Assembly (NCBI GenBank): GCA_003144275.1
Contig: NJBF01000014.1
Coordinates: forward strand, 55,218-87,217
Reading direction: 5' to 3'
DNA: 32,000 nucleotides
Source: Candidatus Heimdallarchaeota archaeon B3_Heim
Lineage (GTDB): Archaea > Asgardarchaeota > Heimdallarchaeia > Hodarchaeales > Hodarchaeaceae
Part shown: positions 5,754-30,994 of the stretch, in pieces
How the letters are laid out: each line of letters starts with the position of its first letter
Position numbering within the stretch: position 1 is the stretch's first letter
Program-made: the position numbers and the translations under genes
The notes under the pieces: generated by a model
Told to the model about the DNA's origin: nothing
The model's database searches: none
Seen by the model: only the letters and a program-made list of their open reading frames with translations

Positions 5754-8252
5754 TTGAAAAAACAGATCAAAGAGAGAGATCCCTTTCCTGAGTTTATCAA
5801 ACACATCACACCATATATTTATAGCATTATTCGGAAATTGAAAGACTCTAGTGGTACTAATTCAGAATCAGAAGTTTTTTTCGAGAATATATTTCTTTCA
5901 GAAAATGTAAATGCAACAGATCAAAAAATTAATTCAATTTCAACTGTTATGGCGGTTTTGATATATGATTGTCTCTGTATAGGATTAAAGACTCTTAAGA
6001 GGGTCGAATTGCTGGGTGAACATTCGTACTTCAATTCAATTCACATGATATTTGATAGAATTACTGAAAAAAACTTAGATATCCCTCTGTTTCACTCACC
6101 AATATTTCCTCTACACTCTCTTATTGAACTGTTCGTATCTAAACCTTATATTTCAAATGAATGTCTAAAATTCCTTTTAGAAAATACTAGCAATTCAATA
6201 AACTATTCCCAAATGAAGTTCCCTTATTACTATGATAGGAGTATCGGGCAAAATAAAATAAAAAACCAAGGCCAAGTTTTTACTCCGATCTCTGTCATAG
6301 ATTTTATTTTTGATCAGGTGATTGTTCCTGAAACTGAGATAATTCTTGATCCTGCAGCTGGTACTGGTGTTTTTTTACTTCGTGCTTTAGAAAACTTACC
6401 CAAGATTGACCTTTCTGAAGTAATAAAAGTAATTGCAATTGAGAAAGATCCGATACTCAGTCTCATATGTGAGAGCGCATTAAAAGTATTTTGCAAATTA
6501 CAATCACAATCAATCGAATGTCAAGTATATAATCAAGATTTTTTTCAAAGTGCCTCTATTTTAAGTGAGTTACGGTCTGAAAAGCATGGAGTTATTGCTA
6601 TTTTAATGAATCCGCCATATACTCGTCAAGAGCTAATTCCAATTAGGGAAAAAGATTTCATAAGGAATAGAGTTTCTTCTACAAGCGTTATTTCGGATTT
6701 TAAACGGAAATACACTTCTTTTCGAGTTTCAGGTCAATCTAGTTTATATATTTATTTCATCCTTTATATTTCTGAGTTTTTAAACCCCCAAGATCGTTTA
6801 GGATTGATTATTCCTAATTCATGGATGGATGTCAGATATGGTTTAATGCTTCAACTTTTCTTATTAGATCATTACAATATTGAATTAATTGTATCCACTC
6901 GTTTAGAAAAGTTAATTCCCTCAGTAGAGGTTAATACAGTTATTTTGACACTTGAAGTAAAGAGTCACATGCAAAGTCTTGAAGTGAGCTCATCCTCTCA
7001 TGAAGTTAAGTTCATCAGAATAAATTCCAAAGCTGATCTCAAGCTCCTTGCTAATTACGGGATCAAAAAGGCACTTCCAATGATTAAGGATAGTGTGTTT
7101 GCATCTGTTATGGAGAGTAAATTACTTCTAGAACCAAAATGGGGAATATTCGTAAAAGCCCCAAGGTATTTCCTTGATTATCTTGATAATACAAAAGATA
7201 ACATGAAATTTTTAAGAGATTATGCCTCAGTTCGCAGAGGTTTTACTAGTGGCGCAAATGATTTCTTTTATGTTGGAAAACCTGGAAGAATGAATAGGTT
7301 TTTCGTTTCCAGTATAGATTTAAAAGATGGAAGTTTAATTTTAAAACCGCAAAACAATGAAATTTTGCATAGATTACAGGAACAAGGTTTTCTTTTAGAG
7401 GAGGAGTCATTTACCATAGAGAGAGAGTATTGGATGCATTCTGACACGAATAATCATGAATTCCAGAAAGAATCAATCCTATATACTACTCCTTATAATG
7501 AAATATGGATCCCAAACTACCTAATAAAATCACCTAAGGAACTTGAAGGATTCAAAGTTACAAGCGAAAATTTAACTTATGTTGTCATTATAATACCTAA
7601 GAAAAGTTCTCTTAAGCTTAAACCAGGAATTAGAAAATATATTAAATGGGGAGAAACATGGAGGCCCATAAAAGGAAACCCCTATGCCTTAAGGACAACT
7701 TGTGCGAATCGTAAATTTTGGTACTCGCTACCTGACGAGTATTATCATTTTTGTCCAATACTTTGCATAATGACAATAAATGACCGCTATCCATTTTTTT
7801 ATAATCCTCATAATTATTATTTTGATGCTCGGTTATATGGCATTACTCCTCTGAGCGAAATAAAAATAAATGAAGAAGATCTGACTACGTTTCTGTTTCT
7901 ATTTCTGAATACTGTTTTTGTCTCAATTCAGATAGAACTATCAGGACGCGAAAATCTTGGAGAAGGAGGACTGGATGTAAAAGTATATGAATATCAAGAT
8001 ATTAAAATTCCACAATTCAAGTTTCTTGGCAAGAAATCGTTCTTGGCCTCGCTTTTCCAAAAAACATTGCTGTCCAAACCCTCATCATATATAAAAAGTG
8101 AACAACCATCATCTAAACAAGAATTAGACCAATTTCTCAGGGAAATCTACTCACTTTCGGACGAAAAAATAGAAAAAATGCATAAATCATTGCAGAAAAT
8201 TGTCCAAGCTCGCATTGATAAAGCTAAGACAGATTTTTCCTACATTTCATGA
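5754..8252 (+). CDS. Large gamma-class N6-adenine DNA methyltransferase (Eco57I/type IIG-like MTase plus TRD), no evident nuclease domain
   Basis: Motif X GQVFTP, motif I LDPAAGTGVF, motif IV MNPPY, then a TRD-like region (RRGFTSGANDFFY). TTG start preceded by GGTGAT at 5745-5750. Confidence 0.87.
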   Translation: MKKQIKERDPFPEFIKHITPYIYSIIRKLKDSSGTNSESEVFFENIFLSENVNATDQKINSISTVMAVLIYDCLCIGLKTLKRVELLGEHSYFNSIHMIFDRITEKNLDIPLFHSPIFPLHSLIELFVSKPYISNECLKFLLENTSNSINYSQMKFPYYYDRSIGQNKIKNQGQVFTPISVIDFIFDQVIVPETEIILDPAAGTGVFLLRALENLPKIDLSEVIKVIAIEKDPILSLICESALKVFCKLQSQSIECQVYNQDFFQSASILSELRSEKHGVIAILMNPPYTRQELIPIREKDFIRNRVSSTSVISDFKRKYTSFRVSGQSSLYIYFILYISEFLNPQDRLGLIIPNSWMDVRYGLMLQLFLLDHYNIELIVSTRLEKLIPSVEVNTVILTLEVKSHMQSLEVSSSSHEVKFIRINSKADLKLLANYGIKKALPMIKDSVFASVMESKLLLEPKWGIFVKAPRYFLDYLDNTKDNMKFLRDYASVRRGFTSGANDFFYVGKPGRMNRFFVSSIDLKDGSLILKPQNNEILHRLQEQGFLLEEESFTIEREYWMHSDTNNHEFQKESILYTTPYNEIWIPNYLIKSPKELEGFKVTSENLTYVVIIIPKKSSLKLKPGIRKYIKWGETWRPIKGNPYALRTTCANRKFWYSLPDEYYHFCPILCIMTINDRYPFFYNPHNYYFDARLYGITPLSEIKINEEDLTTFLFLFLNTVFVSIQIELSGRENLGEGGLDVKVYEYQDIKIPQFKFLGKKSFLASLFQKTLLSKPSSYIKSEQPSSKQELDQFLREIYSLSDEKIEKMHKSLQKIVQARIDKAKTDFSYIS

Positions 8253-8265
8253 AAATTCAAATTCA

Positions 8266-10866
8266 TTATTTATTTAGGAAGGATTCAATTTCTGAGATTT
8301 CCTTTTTTGTCAGATTGTATAACTGATAGATTACTCGATCAATTTCTTCAATTAAAATATGTTTTTTTTCACTCGGTGAGTTTTGAATTTGTCTTGAAGC
8401 AGTTACTATGTCAATATACTTCTGAGAATCACGGGGTGGTAATACCAGAGGTAGATTTCGAATTTGAAGTGGATAATAATCATACATTCCTCCCAAGTCT
8501 TTAAACATACACCGAGCATAAAACGTAAGTGTTTTTGAATTCAATAAGGCTACTAGGAATAGTAAAGTGTTTGTATCGTTGTAATCTTCGTTAGGGATAA
8601 TCCAAACAACATCCTTTGAGGAAAGACAACCTTGATCATCAATCGCAAAAGTATTCCTCCTTGCTTTGTAGGGGGTAACAATCTTAACTCCTTGCCAATC
8701 CATAGTGTTCCGTTCATCTCCATCTCTCCAGAGGTAATACTTAGTAACTCTACTTCTGTTTAGAAGGTCATCTTTATTATCTTTCAAATACTGATAGGCA
8801 TTCTTTGAATTTCTAATTTGCTCGTGACGAAATTTTGGAGCATATAAGACTTCCATTCCTTCTCGCTTTATGAAAAATGTTTTTATCTCCCCCCCTTTTA
8901 ACCATGGTCTATAGTGAGAGGAATTAAGACGTAAACGCATAGAAAAAAAATAAGGAACTTTGGGAGCAAAAACTTTATCACAACCAGTTTCTATACCTTT
9001 GCTGAGTGATGATATTTCATTTAACCTCCAATTTGACATTCTGATTATTTTTTCAATGGTCTTCTTGGTGTTAAGAGAATACAATGTCCATTTCTCAGAT
9101 TTTAGTCCAATTTGAGATATTTTTTTTCCTTTAATATCCTCAAATTTTGTTTTAGAATACTTATAAGCATGAAGTTCTTCATTAGACGTCCATTTTTTAT
9201 TTTTTAGCAGCATGAAGCAAGTTTTAATATTGATTTGAGGGAAGATAAGCAATTCGTTAAAGTCATGGATTTCAAGGAGAGTTGCTCTACGTATGATAAA
9301 TTCTCTAATTTGCTTAGCATAAACACTGGAAAGAACAGATTTAGGTAAAAGAAATCCTAACACTCCATAGGGACTCAAAATTTGCATCATTCTTTTAGTA
9401 AAGAAGTAGGATAGATCACTGTTTCCGCTATAAATTTCAGGATATATTTTCTTAATCTTTAACCGGGTAACCATTGATAAATCAGTTAACGCTATAAAAG
9501 GAGGATTTCCGATAATAATATGGAATTCTGGGGGAATTTCAGGTTCCTTTATATGATCATTTACAGGAAAACACCAAGGTGTGAGGTCACCAATCAGACT
9601 TTCATTCTTTTGCTGAATTTCGTTGGGAAAGACTATATAAGTATCATTTGATGGACTAAAGTAATCGGATTCTGAAAAATGTACTTTTTTCCTAATGTCC
9701 TCCTCTAAATAGCTCTTACATTCATTCCACTCACGTTTTGTTCCTTCTATAATGAAATAATAAGCATTCATAACTTTGCTAAACTTTCTGTGATAGTCAT
9801 TAATGATTAGAGTTTTTTCATAAAAGGATGATTTAGATGGAAGCTTGTAAACCCCTATTTTCCTATCGAAAGCAGAAGAGTGTTCTTTTCTTGCCTTCGC
9901 TCTGACTTTTGCACTCGACAGTAAGTGATTTTCCCTGTCATTATAACCGAATAAGGAATCTCCTAGATAAATATTGTCAGCTAGATCCCCATACGGCTCG
10001 ATTTCTGACATCCAATCTTCTAATATCCATAATCGTAACTTTATTTTAGTGATGAAGATACCGATAGGATCTTTATCAAACCCATAAAGATTGTGCTCAA
10101 GTATTCTCTTTCGTAGATTAAGAGAGGAGGAATCTAGATCTTTTTTCCTGAAAATACCATACAAAATATTGCCTGCAGCAATTAAAAAGGTGCCTGTTCC
10201 AACAGTAGGATCAAGAAGATATATTTTTTGATTCTTCTTTGTTCTAGTTCCTGATTGTGAATTTATTTTCCACCACTGACCAATTGTCCTTTGGGCTATT
10301 TGCTCAGCGAGGTAATAAGGAGTGTAGACTATTCCATCAATTTTTTTTTCTTCTTCCCCGTATTCTCTTAAAAAATTTGCAATTCTGTCAAAAAGATCAA
10401 AATTTATTGCAGTTAAAGATGAGTCATTTAGACTACTATGATTTTTCTGAAAAAAAGAGTCCTTTAATATCGTTTCAGCATAATCCCCCCAATCTACCGT
10501 CTTTAAAATCTGTAGTTCATTGGCTAGAGGTTTGTTGTAATAGTCAGTAACCTGATCCTGACTTGGTAGAAGAGGAAAATATTTGTTTAATTGAAGGATA
10601 ATGGCATAAGGATCATCAAAATAAGAAAATACCTCTTTCCAGTTCTTAAATTCGTAGTTTAGCGTCTTATTGATATTTTTTATACCAAAGAACATCAGAG
10701 TGATAAAATGAAGAACTAATAAATCCTTAAACCATTGGTTCGAAAAATAGGATACAGAAATTTCAAGATCAAGATGTTTAATTTCTTGGATTAATTGTTT
10801 TATCCTGTTTACAACTGAATTCGACGTTCTCTGTTTTGGATTATATCGCTTCAGCTGAAAAGACAA
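8266..10866 (-). CDS. Second large gamma-class amino-DNA methyltransferase with a TaqI-C-like TRD, no evident nuclease domain
   Basis: GIVYTP, LDPTVGTGTF, IIGNPPF, DLSYFF, KGIETGCDKVF, C-terminal EEIDRVIYQLYNLT. TTG start with GGAGA upstream. Confidence 0.87.
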   Translation of the reverse strand: MSFQLKRYNPKQRTSNSVVNRIKQLIQEIKHLDLEISVSYFSNQWFKDLLVLHFITLMFFGIKNINKTLNYEFKNWKEVFSYFDDPYAIILQLNKYFPLLPSQDQVTDYYNKPLANELQILKTVDWGDYAETILKDSFFQKNHSSLNDSSLTAINFDLFDRIANFLREYGEEEKKIDGIVYTPYYLAEQIAQRTIGQWWKINSQSGTRTKKNQKIYLLDPTVGTGTFLIAAGNILYGIFRKKDLDSSSLNLRKRILEHNLYGFDKDPIGIFITKIKLRLWILEDWMSEIEPYGDLADNIYLGDSLFGYNDRENHLLSSAKVRAKARKEHSSAFDRKIGVYKLPSKSSFYEKTLIINDYHRKFSKVMNAYYFIIEGTKREWNECKSYLEEDIRKKVHFSESDYFSPSNDTYIVFPNEIQQKNESLIGDLTPWCFPVNDHIKEPEIPPEFHIIIGNPPFIALTDLSMVTRLKIKKIYPEIYSGNSDLSYFFTKRMMQILSPYGVLGFLLPKSVLSSVYAKQIREFIIRRATLLEIHDFNELLIFPQINIKTCFMLLKNKKWTSNEELHAYKYSKTKFEDIKGKKISQIGLKSEKWTLYSLNTKKTIEKIIRMSNWRLNEISSLSKGIETGCDKVFAPKVPYFFSMRLRLNSSHYRPWLKGGEIKTFFIKREGMEVLYAPKFRHEQIRNSKNAYQYLKDNKDDLLNRSRVTKYYLWRDGDERNTMDWQGVKIVTPYKARRNTFAIDDQGCLSSKDVVWIIPNEDYNDTNTLLFLVALLNSKTLTFYARCMFKDLGGMYDYYPLQIRNLPLVLPPRDSQKYIDIVTASRQIQNSPSEKKHILIEEIDRVIYQLYNLTKKEISEIESFLNK

Positions 10867-12110: not shown

Positions 12111-15100
12111 ATGGCAAGTTCAGGACAAGATCGCGGTGTGAGTTTTGGTTATCGTTCATGGTTTAAACCATTTCGATATAATCAACAGCTAATTCAACCC
12201 ATCTTTATTTTGGACTATGAAGCCACTAGTAGAAAAGAAGATGCTTATGAACCTTACTTTGATTCAGAGGATAGTTACGAATCGGGTAGTAAAAAAAGGA
12301 CGATTAATGGTGTTCAGATATATTTTCTTGATGAAGAGCATAACAAACGAAGTGCTTTCTTACGGCACGCACCTTACTTCTATCTGCTAATAACATCTGG
12401 TTTAACGAATAATCAAGTAAATCGCATAATAGCTCGGATTCAGGAGCTGGGGGAGGATAAAATTGTTATGGTCACAAAGGAAAAATGTCACGATGCTGCT
12501 GATCTAACTTTTCTTGTAACTAAGGACTTTCTTAAAGTGACTGTCGATCATCCTAGGTCTGTTCCTAGCTTGAGATCCCAGTGTGAAAAAATAAAAGGTA
12601 TCATTGAATGGAGAGAAGCTGATGTCTTATATAATCATCGAGTAGCTATTGACCATAATATTAGAGTGGGCTCGTGGTATCAAGCTGATATTAATGGAGG
12701 AGAAATTCACAAACTCGATATCTTAAATAATATGGCCCCTCCAGATCTTCAAATTCTTGCTTATGATATAGAAACTGTTTTTGATCAAACTCGTGAACCA
12801 AATCCGAATCGTGATGCAATTTCCATGATTTCATTATTCACGGGCAAGATAAATCATCTGATAATAAATGACGATGTTGTAAACACGAAAGAAGTCTCAG
12901 GCATTGATATCGTGTTGATGCAGAAAGATGAAGATCATTCAAAGCCTTGGGTTGATTGGTGTAAGACGGGCACAACATTTCCTAACTCTTTACTTATTGA
13001 TCGAGTACCAGTAGAGGTACAAGTTTTCAATAATGAACAACAGCTTCTTCATCGATTTTACGAGATAATTGAGGATTACAAACCGGATGTACTGGCTGAT
13101 TTTTTTGGTGATCGTTTTGACATTCCATTTTTAGCTGTTCGCTCATTACTTTACAATATTTCTCTTGAGAGAAGAACTGGTTTTCGTATCAAATTCAAAC
13201 GGGAGTCAACAGGACAAAATACAGGACCCATTGATCTTAGAGAAAACTATTCCCCTGCTAGAATTGATTCAGTGTCGGGAGCAGGAATAATTCATCTTGA
13301 TGCATTTTTATTCAACGAAAAATATAGTTACTTACCTAAAAAAGACTTAGGACTGAAACCGAGTGTTGAAAAGAAGCTTAAGATAATTCCTATTGGTCGG
13401 GAGGCACTTTTTGCAATCGAAGAAAGCCCCGTTGATGCAGTAGGATATGCAGCGTGTGACGGCTATATTACTTACCGGTACGTGAAAGAAATTGTATTAG
13501 ATTTCTTTATTTCCTTGGGACAAATGTTTCCTGTTCCATCGTCAGAATTATTAACACGTCGTGCTGGTTCGCTTGATGATTTGTTAATTGATGCTGAAGG
13601 TCATCATTACAACATAGTTGGAAAACGTCGTATCGATCAAAAACATATTGAGTCTTTCTCTCCTAATATTATGATTGATTCCTTTGCATATACAGGAGGA
13701 CTTGTTGAGGCGAGACGTTCAGGTATTTTTCGAAGTGACATTTATAGGGAAAACAAAACCAATAGAAAAGCATTAACTGAGATCAAATCGCTTATACAGC
13801 AAATTATTGTAAAGAACAGTAAAGATATCGCGAAGAGGGAAATGAAAAACCAATTTGATAGAAAAGTGTTAGAGAAATTTGGTGGTTTATCGATTTCCTA
13901 TTCAGATGACCTAGAACAGTTATTTCAGAATTTTTTCTTAGCTTTACAAGATAAAGGGGTATCTAAATCGCTTTTTGAAGAGAAAAATGATATCTTGCGC
14001 AGTATACTTGAGGATCTTTCCAATATTCGTGTTGAGGGAGTTGAAAAAGTCGTTGAAACTACGCTGAAGCAAGTCGATAAACTTTTGGAAACAACTGGTG
14101 ATGTTCAGCTAAGGGGTGTACATGTAGATGTCACTTCTATGTATCCTTCGCAAATACGTCAATATAAACTTCAGCCTTCAGGTATTGTACCTCTATCAAA
14201 GTGTCAAGTATGTGAATATAGAGAAAATGATGATAGTTGCTTTTTTGAAGGGGACTGGGTAATTAAACTTACCGCTCGTAGACCATGCAAACATAGAGTA
14301 AAGGGATCATCAAAATGTGATCCCTCAATATGTACCACTAAAAATGCATCTTCGTGTAAAGAGTATGAACCAGAACAAGCTACAACTGGGCGAGTTCAGG
14401 AAATATTTTCTTATAATGGTTCTCAAACACAAGCTTATGTGTTGAGAAAAAAGTCAGGATTTGTCAAAATACCGTTAAGTAAATCATATTTAGGTAAAAA
14501 TTTCACCTCTGTTGATCCCTATAATGAAATAACGAAGTGGTTAGAGCATGCAGTAGAAGCAACTCAACTTGGAAGCCATTTAGATAGAAACTTCTTTGAT
14601 ATTTTTGAAGATCAACCAAAATTATTTCAGCTTCCTAAGAATACATATCTAAGTATTGATGTTAGGACAAAAAAGATATCTGTTCTCATTTCTGTTCAAT
14701 CGCGAGTGTGCCAAAAAGCTTTCAATTTTGTAGCCCGAATTATGGATGAATTTTTCAATACACGGGTTAGACATAAATTTGAAGCGCAGCGATTAAAACA
14801 AGTTATCAAACAAAGAAGTGTTAATAATCAGCCAGTTTCACCAGATATGCTTCGTCAACAAAAATTTCATGATAGTACACAGCTAGGCATGAAAGTTCCA
14901 TTAAATAGCATCTATGGTTTATTAGGGATGCGTGGTGGGGTAAGAAATGCCAGCACGCCGTGCGCTGGTATTACTACAAAGTTATCTGCTGATTTAATTC
15001 ATTGGGCTGCAGACCAATTAGAAGATATTGGAAATGTAACAGAGCTAGATACCGATGGAGTTTGGTTATGGGTTCCTAAAGAATTTCCCCTTGATTTTCC

Positions 15101-16535
15101 GGTTACATTGATAAATCCTGTAGAATTAGATGAAAAACTTGAGTTTCGAGTGAGTCTCATTGATAAAATATTAAATGAGAAGGTGTCTAAGGCTGGTTTT
15201 AAAAATGACAACTATTGGATAAACGATGGGGAGAAAATCAAAAAGATCAGTAAAAGTTTAATTCAATTCGAGCAAGATGGACCTTATGATTTTCAATTTG
15301 TCATGGGAAAGAAGAAATATATAGTTTATAATTATCTATCACAGGAGAACAAGTGGGAGGAAGAGGAGATTACAGGGTTGGAATCAAAGAGAGCAGATTT
15401 TTCAAAGTTACAAAAACACTTTCAGGAAGAAGTCATAAAAGCGTATCTAGAGCAGTATGATCCAGTTCATCCCATTGCATTGGAACAGATTTATCAAAAC
15501 GCCTTTAAGGCATCGGATAGAATAAGAAAAGAAGTAATGGATGGGAAAATAGATCCATCATTTTATGTCAAACCTAAGGCTCTTAACAAAGACCTAAAAG
15601 AATATAAGTCAAAATTACCTCAGGTTACTGCAGCCTACATTTTAAAGGATCTTGGTTATTCCATTGATCCAGGAATCCGTATCCAAATGGTTAATATAAA
15701 GGGAAACCACGTTATCCCTGCTCAGGTATTTGATTTTGATTTTAAAAAGGTTAAATCTGTCTTCATTAAACATGGAATATGCACATTAAGTTTTATGCTG
15801 AATGAAATTACCTCGATCGCAGATATCCAACAATTAATCGATACGAAACAGTATTTGAAAGATATTTACGACCCTGGTAGAATTTTTGATCGAATGATAC
15901 AATATCCGATGAAGAATCAACAAATTAAAACAGAAGATCAGCATGTTCTCGATATCCAAGAAATTGAAATCGCCGAGAAAAAGAAAATCCTTGAACAAGA
16001 GTCGGAAGAAATAGGAAAATCACCAGCCAAATCTTCTTCAGTAGAAGGTAAAGTACCACTCCCTCGGCCTGTACATATATCAACCAGATCACGGTTGAAA
16101 AAGTCTAAAAAGAAAAAAGTCAAAACAAAATCTCTTGATACAATTTTTAATTTTCCAAAAGCAGCTAAAGCTCAACCTAGTCAGCGTCGGAAAAAAATTA
16201 TTAAGCCTACTAAGCCTGTAACAAAACCCTCCCTAGGGAATAAGTTAATGAAGACTATACTTCATAATGAAAAGGGGCTAAGTTCTCCTAAATCTGGTTT
16301 GGTAAATTCTAGTAAACAAAAATCAACTTTAGTATCGACTGATGAAATTGAGGAATTAGAAGAAAAAGAGTTGTTTACTAATGGTAATAAAATTGAGGTA
16401 AAATCATCTTTTTCTCAAGTTGATGTGCAAGCGGATGAAGAAATCGTATGTAGCCTGTGTGGGGCTTTCATAAGTCCTACAGAAGTCATTGATGAAGGGT
16501 GTATCTATTGCCATGACCAACCAGTTACTGAATGA
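12111..16535 (+). CDS. polB: Family B DNA polymerase, DNA polymerase epsilon catalytic-subunit-like
   Basis: Pol2-like N-terminus (YFLDEE, PYFYL, HRVAIDHNIRVGSWY); ExoI YDIET, ExoII GDRFDIPF, ExoIII YAACDG; YTGGLVE..SGIFRSD; region II HVDVTSMYPS; region III KVPLNSIYG; region I ELDTDGVW; FEQDGPY; KKKY; CysX cysteines at C698/C701/C710/C867. Confidence 0.93.
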   Translation: MASSGQDRGVSFGYRSWFKPFRYNQQLIQPIFILDYEATSRKEDAYEPYFDSEDSYESGSKKRTINGVQIYFLDEEHNKRSAFLRHAPYFYLLITSGLTNNQVNRIIARIQELGEDKIVMVTKEKCHDAADLTFLVTKDFLKVTVDHPRSVPSLRSQCEKIKGIIEWREADVLYNHRVAIDHNIRVGSWYQADINGGEIHKLDILNNMAPPDLQILAYDIETVFDQTREPNPNRDAISMISLFTGKINHLIINDDVVNTKEVSGIDIVLMQKDEDHSKPWVDWCKTGTTFPNSLLIDRVPVEVQVFNNEQQLLHRFYEIIEDYKPDVLADFFGDRFDIPFLAVRSLLYNISLERRTGFRIKFKRESTGQNTGPIDLRENYSPARIDSVSGAGIIHLDAFLFNEKYSYLPKKDLGLKPSVEKKLKIIPIGREALFAIEESPVDAVGYAACDGYITYRYVKEIVLDFFISLGQMFPVPSSELLTRRAGSLDDLLIDAEGHHYNIVGKRRIDQKHIESFSPNIMIDSFAYTGGLVEARRSGIFRSDIYRENKTNRKALTEIKSLIQQIIVKNSKDIAKREMKNQFDRKVLEKFGGLSISYSDDLEQLFQNFFLALQDKGVSKSLFEEKNDILRSILEDLSNIRVEGVEKVVETTLKQVDKLLETTGDVQLRGVHVDVTSMYPSQIRQYKLQPSGIVPLSKCQVCEYRENDDSCFFEGDWVIKLTARRPCKHRVKGSSKCDPSICTTKNASSCKEYEPEQATTGRVQEIFSYNGSQTQAYVLRKKSGFVKIPLSKSYLGKNFTSVDPYNEITKWLEHAVEATQLGSHLDRNFFDIFEDQPKLFQLPKNTYLSIDVRTKKISVLISVQSRVCQKAFNFVARIMDEFFNTRVRHKFEAQRLKQVIKQRSVNNQPVSPDMLRQQKFHDSTQLGMKVPLNSIYGLLGMRGGVRNASTPCAGITTKLSADLIHWAADQLEDIGNVTELDTDGVWLWVPKEFPLDFPVTLINPVELDEKLEFRVSLIDKILNEKVSKAGFKNDNYWINDGEKIKKISKSLIQFEQDGPYDFQFVMGKKKYIVYNYLSQENKWEEEEITGLESKRADFSKLQKHFQEEVIKAYLEQYDPVHPIALEQIYQNAFKASDRIRKEVMDGKIDPSFYVKPKALNKDLKEYKSKLPQVTAAYILKDLGYSIDPGIRIQMVNIKGNHVIPAQVFDFDFKKVKSVFIKHGICTLSFMLNEITSIADIQQLIDTKQYLKDIYDPGRIFDRMIQYPMKNQQIKTEDQHVLDIQEIEIAEKKKILEQESEEIGKSPAKSSSVEGKVPLPRPVHISTRSRLKKSKKKKVKTKSLDTIFNFPKAAKAQPSQRRKKIIKPTKPVTKPSLGNKLMKTILHNEKGLSSPKSGLVNSSKQKSTLVSTDEIEELEEKELFTNGNKIEVKSSFSQVDVQADEEIVCSLCGAFISPTEVIDEGCIYCHDQPVTE

Positions 16536-26747: not shown

Positions 26748-26849
26748 GCGGAGGTACCAAAGGGTTCTTCATTTGTCATGAAGTGCTTGTAGTGGCTATG
26801 GAGCAGCCTGCAAAGCTGTATTACGCGTGTTCGAATCACGCCCTCCGCT
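26748..26849 (+). tRNA. tRNA-Cys(GCA) with a 30-nt intron in the D-loop (26763-26792)
   Basis: Acceptor GCGGAGG/CCTCCGC with U73; anticodon arm GCAGC-CTGCAAA-GCTGT (GCA at 26810-26812); T arm GCGTG-TTCGAAT-CACGC; D arm CCAA-AG|TGGCT-ATGG once the intron is removed. CCA not encoded. Confidence 0.92.
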
Positions 26850-26924
26850 CTACTTACTTTTAACCCCTGAATAACATACTTACCATTAATAAATACCAGA
26901 TTAATTCTAGATTAATACTTATCC

Positions 26925-28745
26925 TTGGAGTTTCTATCTGTGTCTGAATCAGTATTTGATGTTGTAGTTCTTGACACGAACTTTTTCATTTCCTTGTTGA
27001 ATGCGGGTGTATCTGATTCCTTAATGCCAAATCTTCAAAAAATTGGGCAATCTGTAGGGATGGAGATAATGGTACCTGATGAAATCCCGAAATCAGATAT
27101 TCCTGGACGATTCCGGCAATTACGACGACTTATACCAAAGTATATACGTATGGAACCTGTTAAGAGATCCTCGAAACTGTGGAATCGAACAGCAGAATAT
27201 GCTATTCAAGAACGGATGGTACGTGTAAAAGACGATCCTGCAGATATCGATGTTGTAATTTTAGCTAAAAAATTTAGTTTGAAAGATAACAACAAGGTAG
27301 CCTTAGTCTCTGATGACGAAGGTGTTGCTAGAATAGTTAAAGAAAACAAAGTATTCAAAGGGATTGACCATTTATCATGTGGTTCGTTTGTTTCGATCTT
27401 AGCAGCATCCGTATCTGACACGAAGATGCGTAAAATTTTGGATCAGACTGTTGAGAGAGTTTTTCGCGCATCATGGAGTTATAAGAAGAAAACTCGTCGA
27501 TATATTGATGTAGCAATGCTAATTGATGATCTAACCGATACTGCGAGATTTGTCAGGTCAGCAGCTGAAGTGGGGGCCGACAGTAGTCTGGCAGAAATCG
27601 AAAAAGAAATTGTCGCAATCGCCCCAAAACACGAACCCGAAGTGTTAACTCCTGAGGATGGTTTAATTATTGCTCAGCAATTAGTGATAAAAGCCCGTGG
27701 AACCCGAGAAACCTTTCATATTCACAAAGCAGAAGAGGTACTTCTCGAAATTCTAGCAAAAAGCTCCGAATTAATTTATTCTATTGATGGGCTAGAACAA
27801 CGCGTTATAGTAGAGAGAATGCTGAGATCTGAATTATTCGAACACCATAGTTGGTTATTAGATTATAGAATATCACGTAACCAAATTGTAGAAGCATTAG
27901 TACATGCTGAAGCTTGTCGAGTATATATGAACTACATTGCTGTAGGGAGAGAGGCAATAGAAAACTTAATAGCTTTACAAGGTTTACTATACTTACTGTT
28001 AGGGAAGTATGAACGAGCATTAGAACTCTTTAAAGCCGTTCCTCAAATGGATCCAGAACTTTCTTCTACTCAAATACTAGGGTTATCAGTTGCCTTAATA
28101 GCAACTGGTCAACAGAATGAATCAGCTCTGTTGATTAAAAGGAATTCAGATATGATGGAAGGATTAATTTCTTCTATGCATGCCTATGCGAATGATCTTT
28201 ATTCGCATGAACAGCGTGAGTTAGCAATTAATATTTTAAAATTCCTTGTAAAGAATTTTAGTAAGCAAGAGGAGGTAGATCGTTCGGTATATCGTTTATT
28301 TGTTTTGACAAGGCTACGTCAAGATTTAGTTAATAGTGAAGTAAAAATTCAGGGAATCTTTAAGAGAAAATTACCAAATCGGGGGGTAGATGACTCTAAA
28401 AAAGGAATACCTAAAAGGCTACTGAGTAAAGTTCCCATAGTATTGTCAACAAGTGAAGATCCAAAAGAAATTGAACAATTCAAAGGCTTTTACCATATAC
28501 TTGATTTAATAGAGGATCGTGAAAAAGATGAGATTAATGTAGTCGCTTGGAATGAGAGCAATAATTCTACATGGCTATTAATATTTGATTCTGCGTACAA
28601 GCCAGCTTTAGAAGAAAGTGTCAAAATTAGAATTACTAGTGGTGAAATCACAAATATTCGCAAAGCTAAGAGAACTGAACCATTTCGTGCAGCTCTTACT
28701 TTCGAGATCCCAACCATTCAGCCAGAATTAGTAAAACCTTGGTAA
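26925..28745 (+). CDS. PIN-domain protein with central TPR-like helices and a beta-rich C-terminal domain
   Basis: VVVLDTNFFISL, PDEI, DPADIDVVILA and LVSDDEGV give the PIN acidic residues; TPR-like segment QGLLYLLLGKYERALELFKAV. TTG start. Confidence 0.8.
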   Translation: MEFLSVSESVFDVVVLDTNFFISLLNAGVSDSLMPNLQKIGQSVGMEIMVPDEIPKSDIPGRFRQLRRLIPKYIRMEPVKRSSKLWNRTAEYAIQERMVRVKDDPADIDVVILAKKFSLKDNNKVALVSDDEGVARIVKENKVFKGIDHLSCGSFVSILAASVSDTKMRKILDQTVERVFRASWSYKKKTRRYIDVAMLIDDLTDTARFVRSAAEVGADSSLAEIEKEIVAIAPKHEPEVLTPEDGLIIAQQLVIKARGTRETFHIHKAEEVLLEILAKSSELIYSIDGLEQRVIVERMLRSELFEHHSWLLDYRISRNQIVEALVHAEACRVYMNYIAVGREAIENLIALQGLLYLLLGKYERALELFKAVPQMDPELSSTQILGLSVALIATGQQNESALLIKRNSDMMEGLISSMHAYANDLYSHEQRELAINILKFLVKNFSKQEEVDRSVYRLFVLTRLRQDLVNSEVKIQGIFKRKLPNRGVDDSKKGIPKRLLSKVPIVLSTSEDPKEIEQFKGFYHILDLIEDREKDEINVVAWNESNNSTWLLIFDSAYKPALEESVKIRITSGEITNIRKAKRTEPFRAALTFEIPTIQPELVKPW

Positions 28746-29946: not shown

Positions 29947-30994
29947 CTAACGAGATTCGTATCTCTTATGGATTAAGCGATAGTTATTTGCCAAACGTCC
30001 TAGTTTATGTGCTTCGTCTGGAGTCAAATGATAAGAATTAGATTCTCCATTTTTGTTTGTTGCTTCAATATAAGCGAAGGATGCATTATCAACAAGTATT
30101 TCAGTATTTTTATGATATCCTGTATCACCTGTGAATGCTAGCCATTTTTCACCCTTAAAGTAGATTGCATAACCCAATGACGGAATTGGTGACATTGCTC
30201 CCACTCCGATGATTGACCCCTGATGCTGCATTTGATAGCTTTCAATCTCAACTTAATCAGTAATTTTTACCCTGTCCCCATGAGATAATCTTAATTCTTC
30301 AAATGGGAAAGGAAGTGACGGCTTATACACTGAAAGGAAGGATTCGATAATAGCTTGAATTTCATTGCTCCCTTCTGGTGAATAGACACTTACAACTTGT
30401 CTATGACCAAGCATGCGTAAAAAACCTAGAAAAGTGTACAAACCTCCACAATGATCAAAGTGCCCATGATCATTTTTGTCCGACAATTCCCTAGTTCTCA
30501 TATTCGCTGACCTCTCTCTCTCCCTTACAAACTTAAAAGGCGTCCCTCCTGTACTTCATCAACACCGAGGTGATGACAAAAAAATTTACTTAGCTCCTAG
30601 GTCATATTCCCTTGTAACTTCGTTAGACGAGTTACCCGTCAAAGGCAAGAGAAGAATGACCCAGACTGGTCAAAAAGTTTTGGTGTTTGGGATGTCGCCA
30701 GAAGATCTGATGCAAGTAGTCCCAATGGAAAGCAACAATTCTCTGGTTGCTAACCAGCCGGATAGTGGATGTGTGACTCATCCTGTCCAGAACTATTTTT
30801 CAAATAGTTGTCTGACAAATTTAGTCATGAGAGATTAAAATGTGAACAGGCTTATTTATTGGGAATGCATTCTTATTCTCCACTATATCGCGAAGGGTCC
30901 CACCTCCTATATCTAAGAATAATAAGAAATCCTCATCAGTTACAAGAATAGTTGTAGCAATTCCTGCAATAGAATAAAGAACTTGATGTTCCAT
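29947..30994 (-). pseudogene. Disrupted RNase Z/BN-like MBL-fold metallohydrolase (insertion plus premature stop)
   Basis: ATG 30994 encodes MEHQVLYSIAG...LDIGGGTLRD...HILISH. The frame resumes after the insertion as GHFDHCGGL, has an in-frame TAA at 30253-30255, and continues with QH, GDTG, IEAT, HLT, LIH. Reconstructed length is about 228 codons. Confidence 0.88.
30469..30825. mobile_element. ~357-bp non-autonomous MITE-like insertion
   Basis: Flanked by duplicated CATG(A) at 30465 and 30826; imperfect terminal inverted repeats ATCATTTTTGTCCGACAA / ACTAAATTTGTCAGACAA (13/18 identical). Removing it restores TCT CAT GGG CAC. About 45% G+C by hand count over 30481-30780. Confidence 0.8.

Follow-up and report, generated by a model that had tools for sequence, protein, structure and literature searches.

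A candidate intron at position 15/16 in the D-loop of the tRNA-Cys gene of a Hodarchaeales archaeon

Which gene provides the tRNA-Cys of this Hodarchaeales genome? ARAGORN with default settings found no tRNA gene (0) in the whole window, the stretch of 32,000 nucleotides that was analyzed, and Rfam gave no match at gathering score at the locus described here. Together, these two tools leave the genome without any tRNA-Cys, so that a Hodarchaeales genome annotated with them would look unable to decode Cys codons. Traces of a tRNA appeared when the searches were relaxed. Rfam with relaxed thresholds gave a partial tRNA match of 22.5 bits, covering the 3' part only, and ARAGORN with introns permitted miscalled the locus as tRNA-Asp(GUC), because the hairpin of the intron resembles an anticodon arm. 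The host assembly comprises 3.95 Mb in 103 contigs, with 94% completeness and around 35% G+C, and in the window the locus is surrounded by genes encoding HMG-CoA reductase, a family B DNA polymerase, and an aIF-2B-family protein.

Re-reading the window, we found a tRNA-Cys(GCA) gene at positions 26748-26849 of the forward strand, split by a 30-nt insert in the D-loop, with the coordinates and sequence described in the initial annotation. The 5' exon (26748-26762, +; GCGGAGGUACCAAAG) corresponds to tRNA positions 1-15 and comprises the 5' strand of the acceptor stem (GCGGAGG), U8 and A9, the 5' strand of the D-stem (CCAA), and A14 and G15; it shows no difference among all 19 orthologues of the genus. 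The insert (26763-26792, +; GGUUCUUCAUUUGUCAUGAAGUGCUUGUAG) lies at 15/16. The 3' exon (26793-26849, +; UGGCUAUGGAGCAGCCUGCAAAGCUGUAUUACGCGUGUUCGAAUCACGCCCUCCGCU) corresponds to positions 16-73 and has a T-loop reading UUCGAAU, and the CCA end is not encoded. The anticodon GCA (26810-26812, +) and the discriminator U (U73; 26849, +), which we take to be identity elements for CysRS, are invariant in the 19 orthologues. It had been claimed that taking out 26763-26792 leaves a 72-nt cloverleaf, and this was borne out by ARAGORN, which called the gene spliced in silico as a clean 72-nt tRNA-Cys(GCA) with discriminator U. The cloverleaf of the spliced form, with a 7-bp acceptor stem and D, anticodon, and T arms, lies at most 1 kcal/mol from the minimum-free-energy fold. 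An oligo-T run (26858-26861, +) starts 9 nt past the gene and is likely an archaeal terminator signal. The stretch ctacttactttta is kept in three relatives (G013, G003, and G018).

The comparison with relatives places the junction. When the locus was searched by BLAST against 40 related genomes, the 3' exon was matched in most genomes of the genus, with the similarity beginning at the predicted 3' splice site. Five of these genomes (G001, G010, G015, G016, and G019) carry an uninterrupted orthologue reading ...CCAAAG|UGGCUAUGG..., which is the junction predicted for the window gene. The continuation after this junction is TGGCTATGG, replaced by TGGTTATGG in G001 and G016. The earlier claim on the junction formed by removal of the 30 nt thus matches five intron-free syntenic orthologues exactly. 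The genes of these five genomes, and those of the three genomes with the insert (see below), are all found 1-1.5 kb from the HMG-CoA reductase gene, and they can therefore be regarded as positional orthologues. We built a covariance model, R1, from only the five intron-free orthologues. It aligned to the window gene over positions 1-72 with 81.2 bits and a single D-loop insertion of about 30 nt.

The same insert is present at the same site in three other genomes (G013, G003, and G018), with a length of 30 or 31 nt, and a pattern scan of public metagenome contigs revealed two further carriers (L124 and L125). In addition, an identical tRNA-Cys gene including the insert is present on a DNA contig of a separate cold-seep sample, and the insert is therefore not an assembly artefact. 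Across the five distinct carrier copies, one of the 72 exon columns is variable, compared with 17 of the 31 columns of the insert. When only the carrier genomes are considered, the variable columns are 0/72 in the exons and 11/31 in the intron (Fisher test; P = 4e-7), and the exons are the same in four genomes despite diverged introns and flanks. The bases of the insert that do not change are the pair closing its hairpin (G17-C40), the UUG that contributes to the central helix, and the base with which the 3' triplet begins; these are the parts that the predicted splice motif would need. One of the metagenome copies (L125:1514-1615) has an A instead of C72, so that its acceptor stem contains a G1-A72 mismatch, together with the central helix strand UUGA; an error in sequencing or an allele in decay might explain this variant.

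We estimate at about 88% the probability that this locus is a functional single-copy tRNA-Cys(GCA) gene whose 15/16 intron is removed by a protein enzyme, with cleavage and ligation inferred from sequence. In the precursor, the D-stem strand CCAA, which is paired with AUGG in the mature tRNA, would pair with the UUGU of the intron (UUGG in relatives). The resulting 4-bp central helix would stack on the 9-bp hairpin of the intron across a 3-nt bulge bearing the 5' cut, with the 3' cut located two bases beyond the central helix, within the junction loop. Both triplets would be cut after their second base by an (alpha-beta)2 EndA with a crenarchaeal-type specificity loop on its catalytic subunit, and RtcB would ligate the exons. 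The D-stem would form once the exons are joined, after which the addition of CCA and charging by CysRS would yield a functional 72-nt tRNA.

The proteins implicated in this pathway are encoded in the genome. There are two genes with an EndA domain, both on contig C57 (alpha at 43111-43659 and beta at 84383-85030). The product of the first (alpha; 182 aa) has its best match (8.5e-43) in the catalytic subunit of Aeropyrum pernix, with no gap in the alignment, and its triad Y120, H128, and K159 corresponds to Y125, H133, and K164 of A. pernix. Its residues K39 and K41 correspond to K44 and R46 of the specificity loop of A. pernix, a loop specific to Crenarchaea. This loop, and K44 especially, permits the cutting of D-loop introns and of bulge-helix-loop (BHL) substrates (Hirata et al. 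2011, PMC3241643). The product of the second gene (beta; 215 aa) has an Ala at the position of the catalytic His of Methanocaldococcus jannaschii EndA and looks like a structural, noncatalytic subunit. With the triad and the basic pair of the specificity loop conserved in one subunit, and the catalytic His missing in the other, the host splicing endonuclease is predicted to be of the (alpha-beta)2 type. Genes encoding RtcB and a full-length CysRS are also present in the genome.

The RNA contigs from two metatranscriptome runs cover just the genes neighboring tRNA-Cys. One low-depth contig (run X19; window 26850-27006) starts right after the discriminator and enters the downstream open reading frame. 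A longer transcript cut by RNase Z might give such a start at 26850, but contigs cannot show RNA ends, and this one is not counted as evidence.

The 30 nt could also be retained, the tRNA working with a 37-nt D-loop bearing an extra hairpin. What speaks for retention is that removal is deduced from sequence data and that the motif of the window genome is relaxed. We nonetheless consider it very unlikely, since the insert evolves at about the rate of the flanks, whereas the exons are frozen, and close relatives with near-identical tRNAs lack the insert altogether. Moreover, the invariant bases of the insert coincide with the splice motif (G17-C40, UUG, and the first bulge base), and a retained hairpin would part G15 from G18/G19 in the D-loop. 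Parting these residues would be expected to impair tRNA function.

Very little probability is likewise left to the window copy being a decaying pseudogene, with a working tRNA-Cys hidden in the 6% of the genome that was not assembled. In favor of this reading, the completeness is 94%, in 103 contigs, and one pair of the central helix is lost in the window copy. Against this, the exons are identical in four genomes in which introns and flanks have diverged, and in each genome of the genus that gave a tRNA-Cys match, the syntenic locus was the sole one. Among these is a genome assembled in one contig of 4.9 Mb (G009), whose sole tRNA-Cys copy has a D-arm intron. In the window genome, the R1 model identified the tRNA-Cys locus as the only strong match, the next ones being other tRNAs with at most 46 bits, and a scan of the genome for GCA anticodon arms gave no candidate beyond this locus. 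Neither search thus revealed another tRNA-Cys in the 94% complete genome.

The initial annotation had proposed that the precursor folds as a relaxed bulge-helix-bulge, and the parts drawn there were recognized in the sequence. The exon strand of the central helix H is CCAA (positions 10-13; 26757-26760, +), and it pairs with the intron strand UUGU (26787-26790, +), which is UUGG in G003, G018, and L124, and UUGA in L125. The 5' bulge, A G/G (26761-26763, +), would be cut after its second base, with the junction set by the intron-free orthologues. It is followed by the intron hairpin h' (26764-26786, +; GUUCUUCAU / loop UUGUC / AUGAAGUGC), in which 8 of the 9 pairs are formed, and the 3' splice-site triplet, A G/U (26791-26793, +), lies in a loop where a closed bulge is absent. 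The central helix of the window gene has three of its four pairs, with C10 opposite U. The pairs C11-G, A12-U, and A13-U are constant in the carriers, and C10-G is formed in three of the five distinct copies, so that the helix has 4/4 pairs in G003, G018, and L124, and 3/4 in the window gene, G013, and L125 (where C10 is opposite A). The outer helix was described as weak, and indeed it consists of just G6-U, G7-C, and U8-G, behind an A-G mismatch, and the acceptor stem competes with it. Because of this weakness, the 3' site is in a loop instead of a true bulge. The predicted motif is of the relaxed HBh', or bulge-helix-loop (BHL), type of the bulge-helix-bulge.

In a bulge-helix-bulge, each cut falls after the second base of the bulge, as at the canonical position 37/38. 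Cuts placed after the second base of each triplet regenerate here an intact tRNA with the sequence of the five intron-free orthologues. The sequence of the window gene equally allows cuts at 14/15, since G26762 is identical to G26792 and the mature tRNA would be the same either way. The site claimed at the outset, 15/16, therefore gains its support from the relatives G003 and G018 and from the geometry of the motif. Cuts at 14/15 would leave the central helix without any of its four pairs (0/4). The last base of the intron is A, C, U, and U in G003, G018, L124, and L125, respectively, and only cuts at 15/16 restore the sequence of the orthologues. Splicing at 14/15 is hence extremely unlikely.

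Pairing in H and h' was conserved across the five copies (93.5% of cells paired, and 95% in h'), compared with 13-45% when the partners were slid, and two pairs of the hairpin were changed on both strands (C-G to G-U and A-U to G-C). We made dinucleotide shuffles of the intron as a control (n = 5000, exact boundary). At least three central pairs were formed in 9.6% of them, and these plus the two closing pairs in 1.4%, while none (0/5000) also matched the energy of the hairpin. A perfect central helix of 4/4 pairs arose in about 1% of the shuffles, and together with the hairpin in 0.02%. The strand UUGU alone is unspecific, fitting 21 of 58 alternative positions, compared with 2 of 58 for the UUGG of the relatives. 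Minimum-free-energy folding of the precursor did not return the splice motif, and the fold bearing it lies above the predicted minimum by 6.3 kcal/mol in the window gene and 2.6 kcal/mol in G018. In the window genome, the motif alone is weak evidence, and it is the comparison with orthologues that carries the case.

The tRNA-Asp(GUC) with an 18-nt intron in the anticodon loop and a long extra arm, reported by ARAGORN when introns are permitted, deserves practically no credence, since its D-arm has one pair, the true anticodon arm is used as a variable arm, its putative anticodon loop differs among relatives (UUGUC, AUAUC, AUGCC, and another in L124), and the GCA arm and the discriminator U never vary. 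This model is an artefact, ruled out by the orthologue comparison.

The locus is in different states within the genus. Besides the intron-free genes and those carrying the candidate 15/16 intron, nine genomes (G012, G009, G002, G011, G008, G014, G017, G021, and G007) have a different intron of 30 nt at 23/24 (L005-L013, e.g., L006:1501-1602), placed by the same cut rule as the one at 15/16. Its central helix is made by GGCU, which is self-complementary, with GGCU or AGCU, and has 4/4 pairs in nine of the nine genomes. The bulges are AU/N, and AA/G or AU/G. The intron strand is AGCU in G002 and G007, where a U-G pair becomes U-A. A direct repeat, GGCTA[T/A] (GGCUA[U/A] in the RNA), is found at the end of exon 1 and at the end of this intron. 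Finally, the gene of G005 is interrupted at the canonical position 37/38, by an intron of 30 nt (L019:1506-1607). One syntenic locus in one genus thus shows four states: intron-free, 15/16, 23/24, and 37/38.

We placed the clades with a tree of HMG-CoA reductase, a single gene, which makes the placement provisional. In this tree, the carriers of the 15/16 intron form a clade (support of 100/100) that is sister to the intron-free G001 and G016. One further genome, G020, falls within the 15/16 clade, and its tRNA locus runs past the end of the contig. Eight of the nine carriers of the 23/24 intron group in a clade of their own. The tRNA-Cys of other families of the class is either uninterrupted or split at another site (at 37/38 in some, and by 30 nt in the T-arm in G079). 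From this distribution, we interpret the 15/16 intron as derived, gained in a single clade within the genus. A search of the genome for a second copy of this intron using blastn-short gave chance-level matches only, and there is therefore no sign of its transposition from another tRNA gene.

The introns of tRNA-Cys in the class have 29-31 nt at four positions: 15/16, 23/24, 37/38, and, in G079, the T-arm (loci L019 in G005, and L110, L111, and L112 in G081, G039, and G079, respectively). This could be either the usual size of introns in these lineages or a clue to their origin. The introns of about 30 nt at 15/16, 23/24, and 37/38, together with the one in the T-arm of a neighboring family, might be one intron or module relocating within and between tRNA genes, which we regard as improbable. 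The only hints in this direction are the recurring length and the direct repeat GGCUA[U/A] at the borders of the 23/24 intron. No likeness between the sequences of the introns at these positions, including the T-arm, was seen by eye; at saturated neutral divergence between the clades, no similarity between introns would be expected to survive. If relocation were true, the locus would give a tractable natural system to study the route by which archaeal tRNA introns arrive.

Interrupted tRNA genes are common in Asgard archaea. In three complete Asgard genomes, 92-95% of the tRNA genes were found to have introns, frequently at noncanonical positions (Valentin-Alvarado et al. 2024, PMC11291895). 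A more recent study (Goswami et al. 2026, bioRxiv 10.64898/2026.10.13.758758) reported that around 30% of the inserts in its three focal families escape tRNAscan-SE, and that half of these lie in the D-arm. It also reported that the inserts have bulge-helix-bulge boundaries, that gains are frequent and recent, and that most Asgard genomes encode two EndA paralogues (bioRxiv 10.64898/2026.10.13.758758). D-arm introns missed by annotators are thus already known in Asgard tRNA genes, and tRNA-Cys with an intron at 15/16 is one more case. It resembles them in the Asgard host, in the short insert (median of 22-23 nt there and 30 nt here), in the D-arm site missed by tRNAscan-type tools there, and in boundaries obtained from compact relatives. 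The compatibility of these boundaries with a bulge-helix-bulge, the two EndA paralogues, and the recent, clade-restricted gains are further common points. Those studies differ in their focus on Atabeyarchaeia and on Jordiarchaeia/Freyarchaeia, with Heimdallarchaeia reported as less interrupted, while we describe four states of one syntenic locus in a single genus. Neither of them mentions Hodarchaeales or tRNA-Cys (PMC11291895; bioRxiv 10.64898/2026.10.13.758758). Position 15/16 is absent from those named in PMC4090602 (3/4, 20/21, 22/23, 25/26, and others), and a text search of the literature for positions 15 and 16 gave nothing relevant, slash notation not being searchable.

Outside Asgard archaea, the closest likeness is with the pre-tRNA-Thr(UGU) of A. 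pernix, which also has an intron in the D-loop, where it is cut by a heterotetrameric EndA (APE-EndA; PMC3241643). In that enzyme, K44 and R46 allow nonstandard positions and BHL substrates, and the alpha subunit described here keeps both basic residues. The A. pernix intron is described as a canonical bulge-helix-bulge and was cleaved in vitro, whereas the motif proposed here is relaxed (3/4 pairs and a looped 3' site) and is known from its sequence. Thermoproteales share with these lineages the many intron positions, the relaxed motifs, the (alpha-beta)2 EndA, and the lineage-specific gains (Sugahara 2008 and Fujishima 2010, via PMC4090602 and PMC4033280). Similar introns recur there across different tRNAs, as a result of transposition, whereas the 15/16 intron is single-copy in its genome. 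The pre-tRNA introns of eukaryotic bulge-helix-loop type are alike in having one well-formed bulge and helix with the other site looped, and those of Cyanidioschyzon merolae and of nucleomorphs are also located in the D-arm (PMC3728597, PMC4090602). Those eukaryotic-type systems use Sen complexes, whereas the enzyme here would be archaeal and made of two subunits.

The case of tRNA-Cys leaves the knowledge of how such introns work unchanged. What is most interesting in it is that one locus is polymorphic, with four states, and has introns of equal length at different positions. Alleles that are intron-free or interrupted at 15/16, 23/24, or 37/38 in the same context make this a compact case to study how tRNA introns are gained and lost, within the archaea that are considered the nearest to eukaryotes. 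The candidate intron also provides a concrete relaxed substrate, with a looped 3' site and a dispensable fourth central pair, for the range of an Asgard (alpha-beta)2 EndA. Measurement of the substrate range of Asgard EndA has been named as missing (bioRxiv 10.64898/2026.10.13.758758).

Other tRNA genes of the genome are long as well. A rough scan of our own gave 38 tRNA-like genes, 25 of which have at least 90 nt. Many have 100-200 nt, with inserts visibly beginning in the D arm (in contigs C57, C80, and C88; e.g., C80:39579-39743 and C88:42048-42231). Among the genes that could be aligned to the Rfam tRNA model, one clear D-loop insertion was read, with 33 extra nt (L069; C57:155338-155442); this general model fails to align most of the interrupted tRNA genes.

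The genome also contains a family of repeats of about 160 nt, starting with GGATGAGTCACACATCC and ending with ...GGGTAACTCGTCT[A/C], which is found in the window at around 30624-30783 (-) and in about 20 more places. The ends of the repeat look like an acceptor stem. Rfam gave no match to it at gathering score, and it may represent a MITE or an RNA associated with a transposon. The open reading frame of the family B DNA polymerase (12111-16535, +) has 1474 aa, with the exonuclease at 168-413 and the polymerase domain at 1046-1200, and the gap of about 600 aa between them suggests one or more inteins. Two large convergent genes (5754-8252, +, and 8266-10866, -) encode Eco57I / N6-methylase domains, one of them with a TaqI-like specificity domain, and look like type IIG-like restriction-modification genes.
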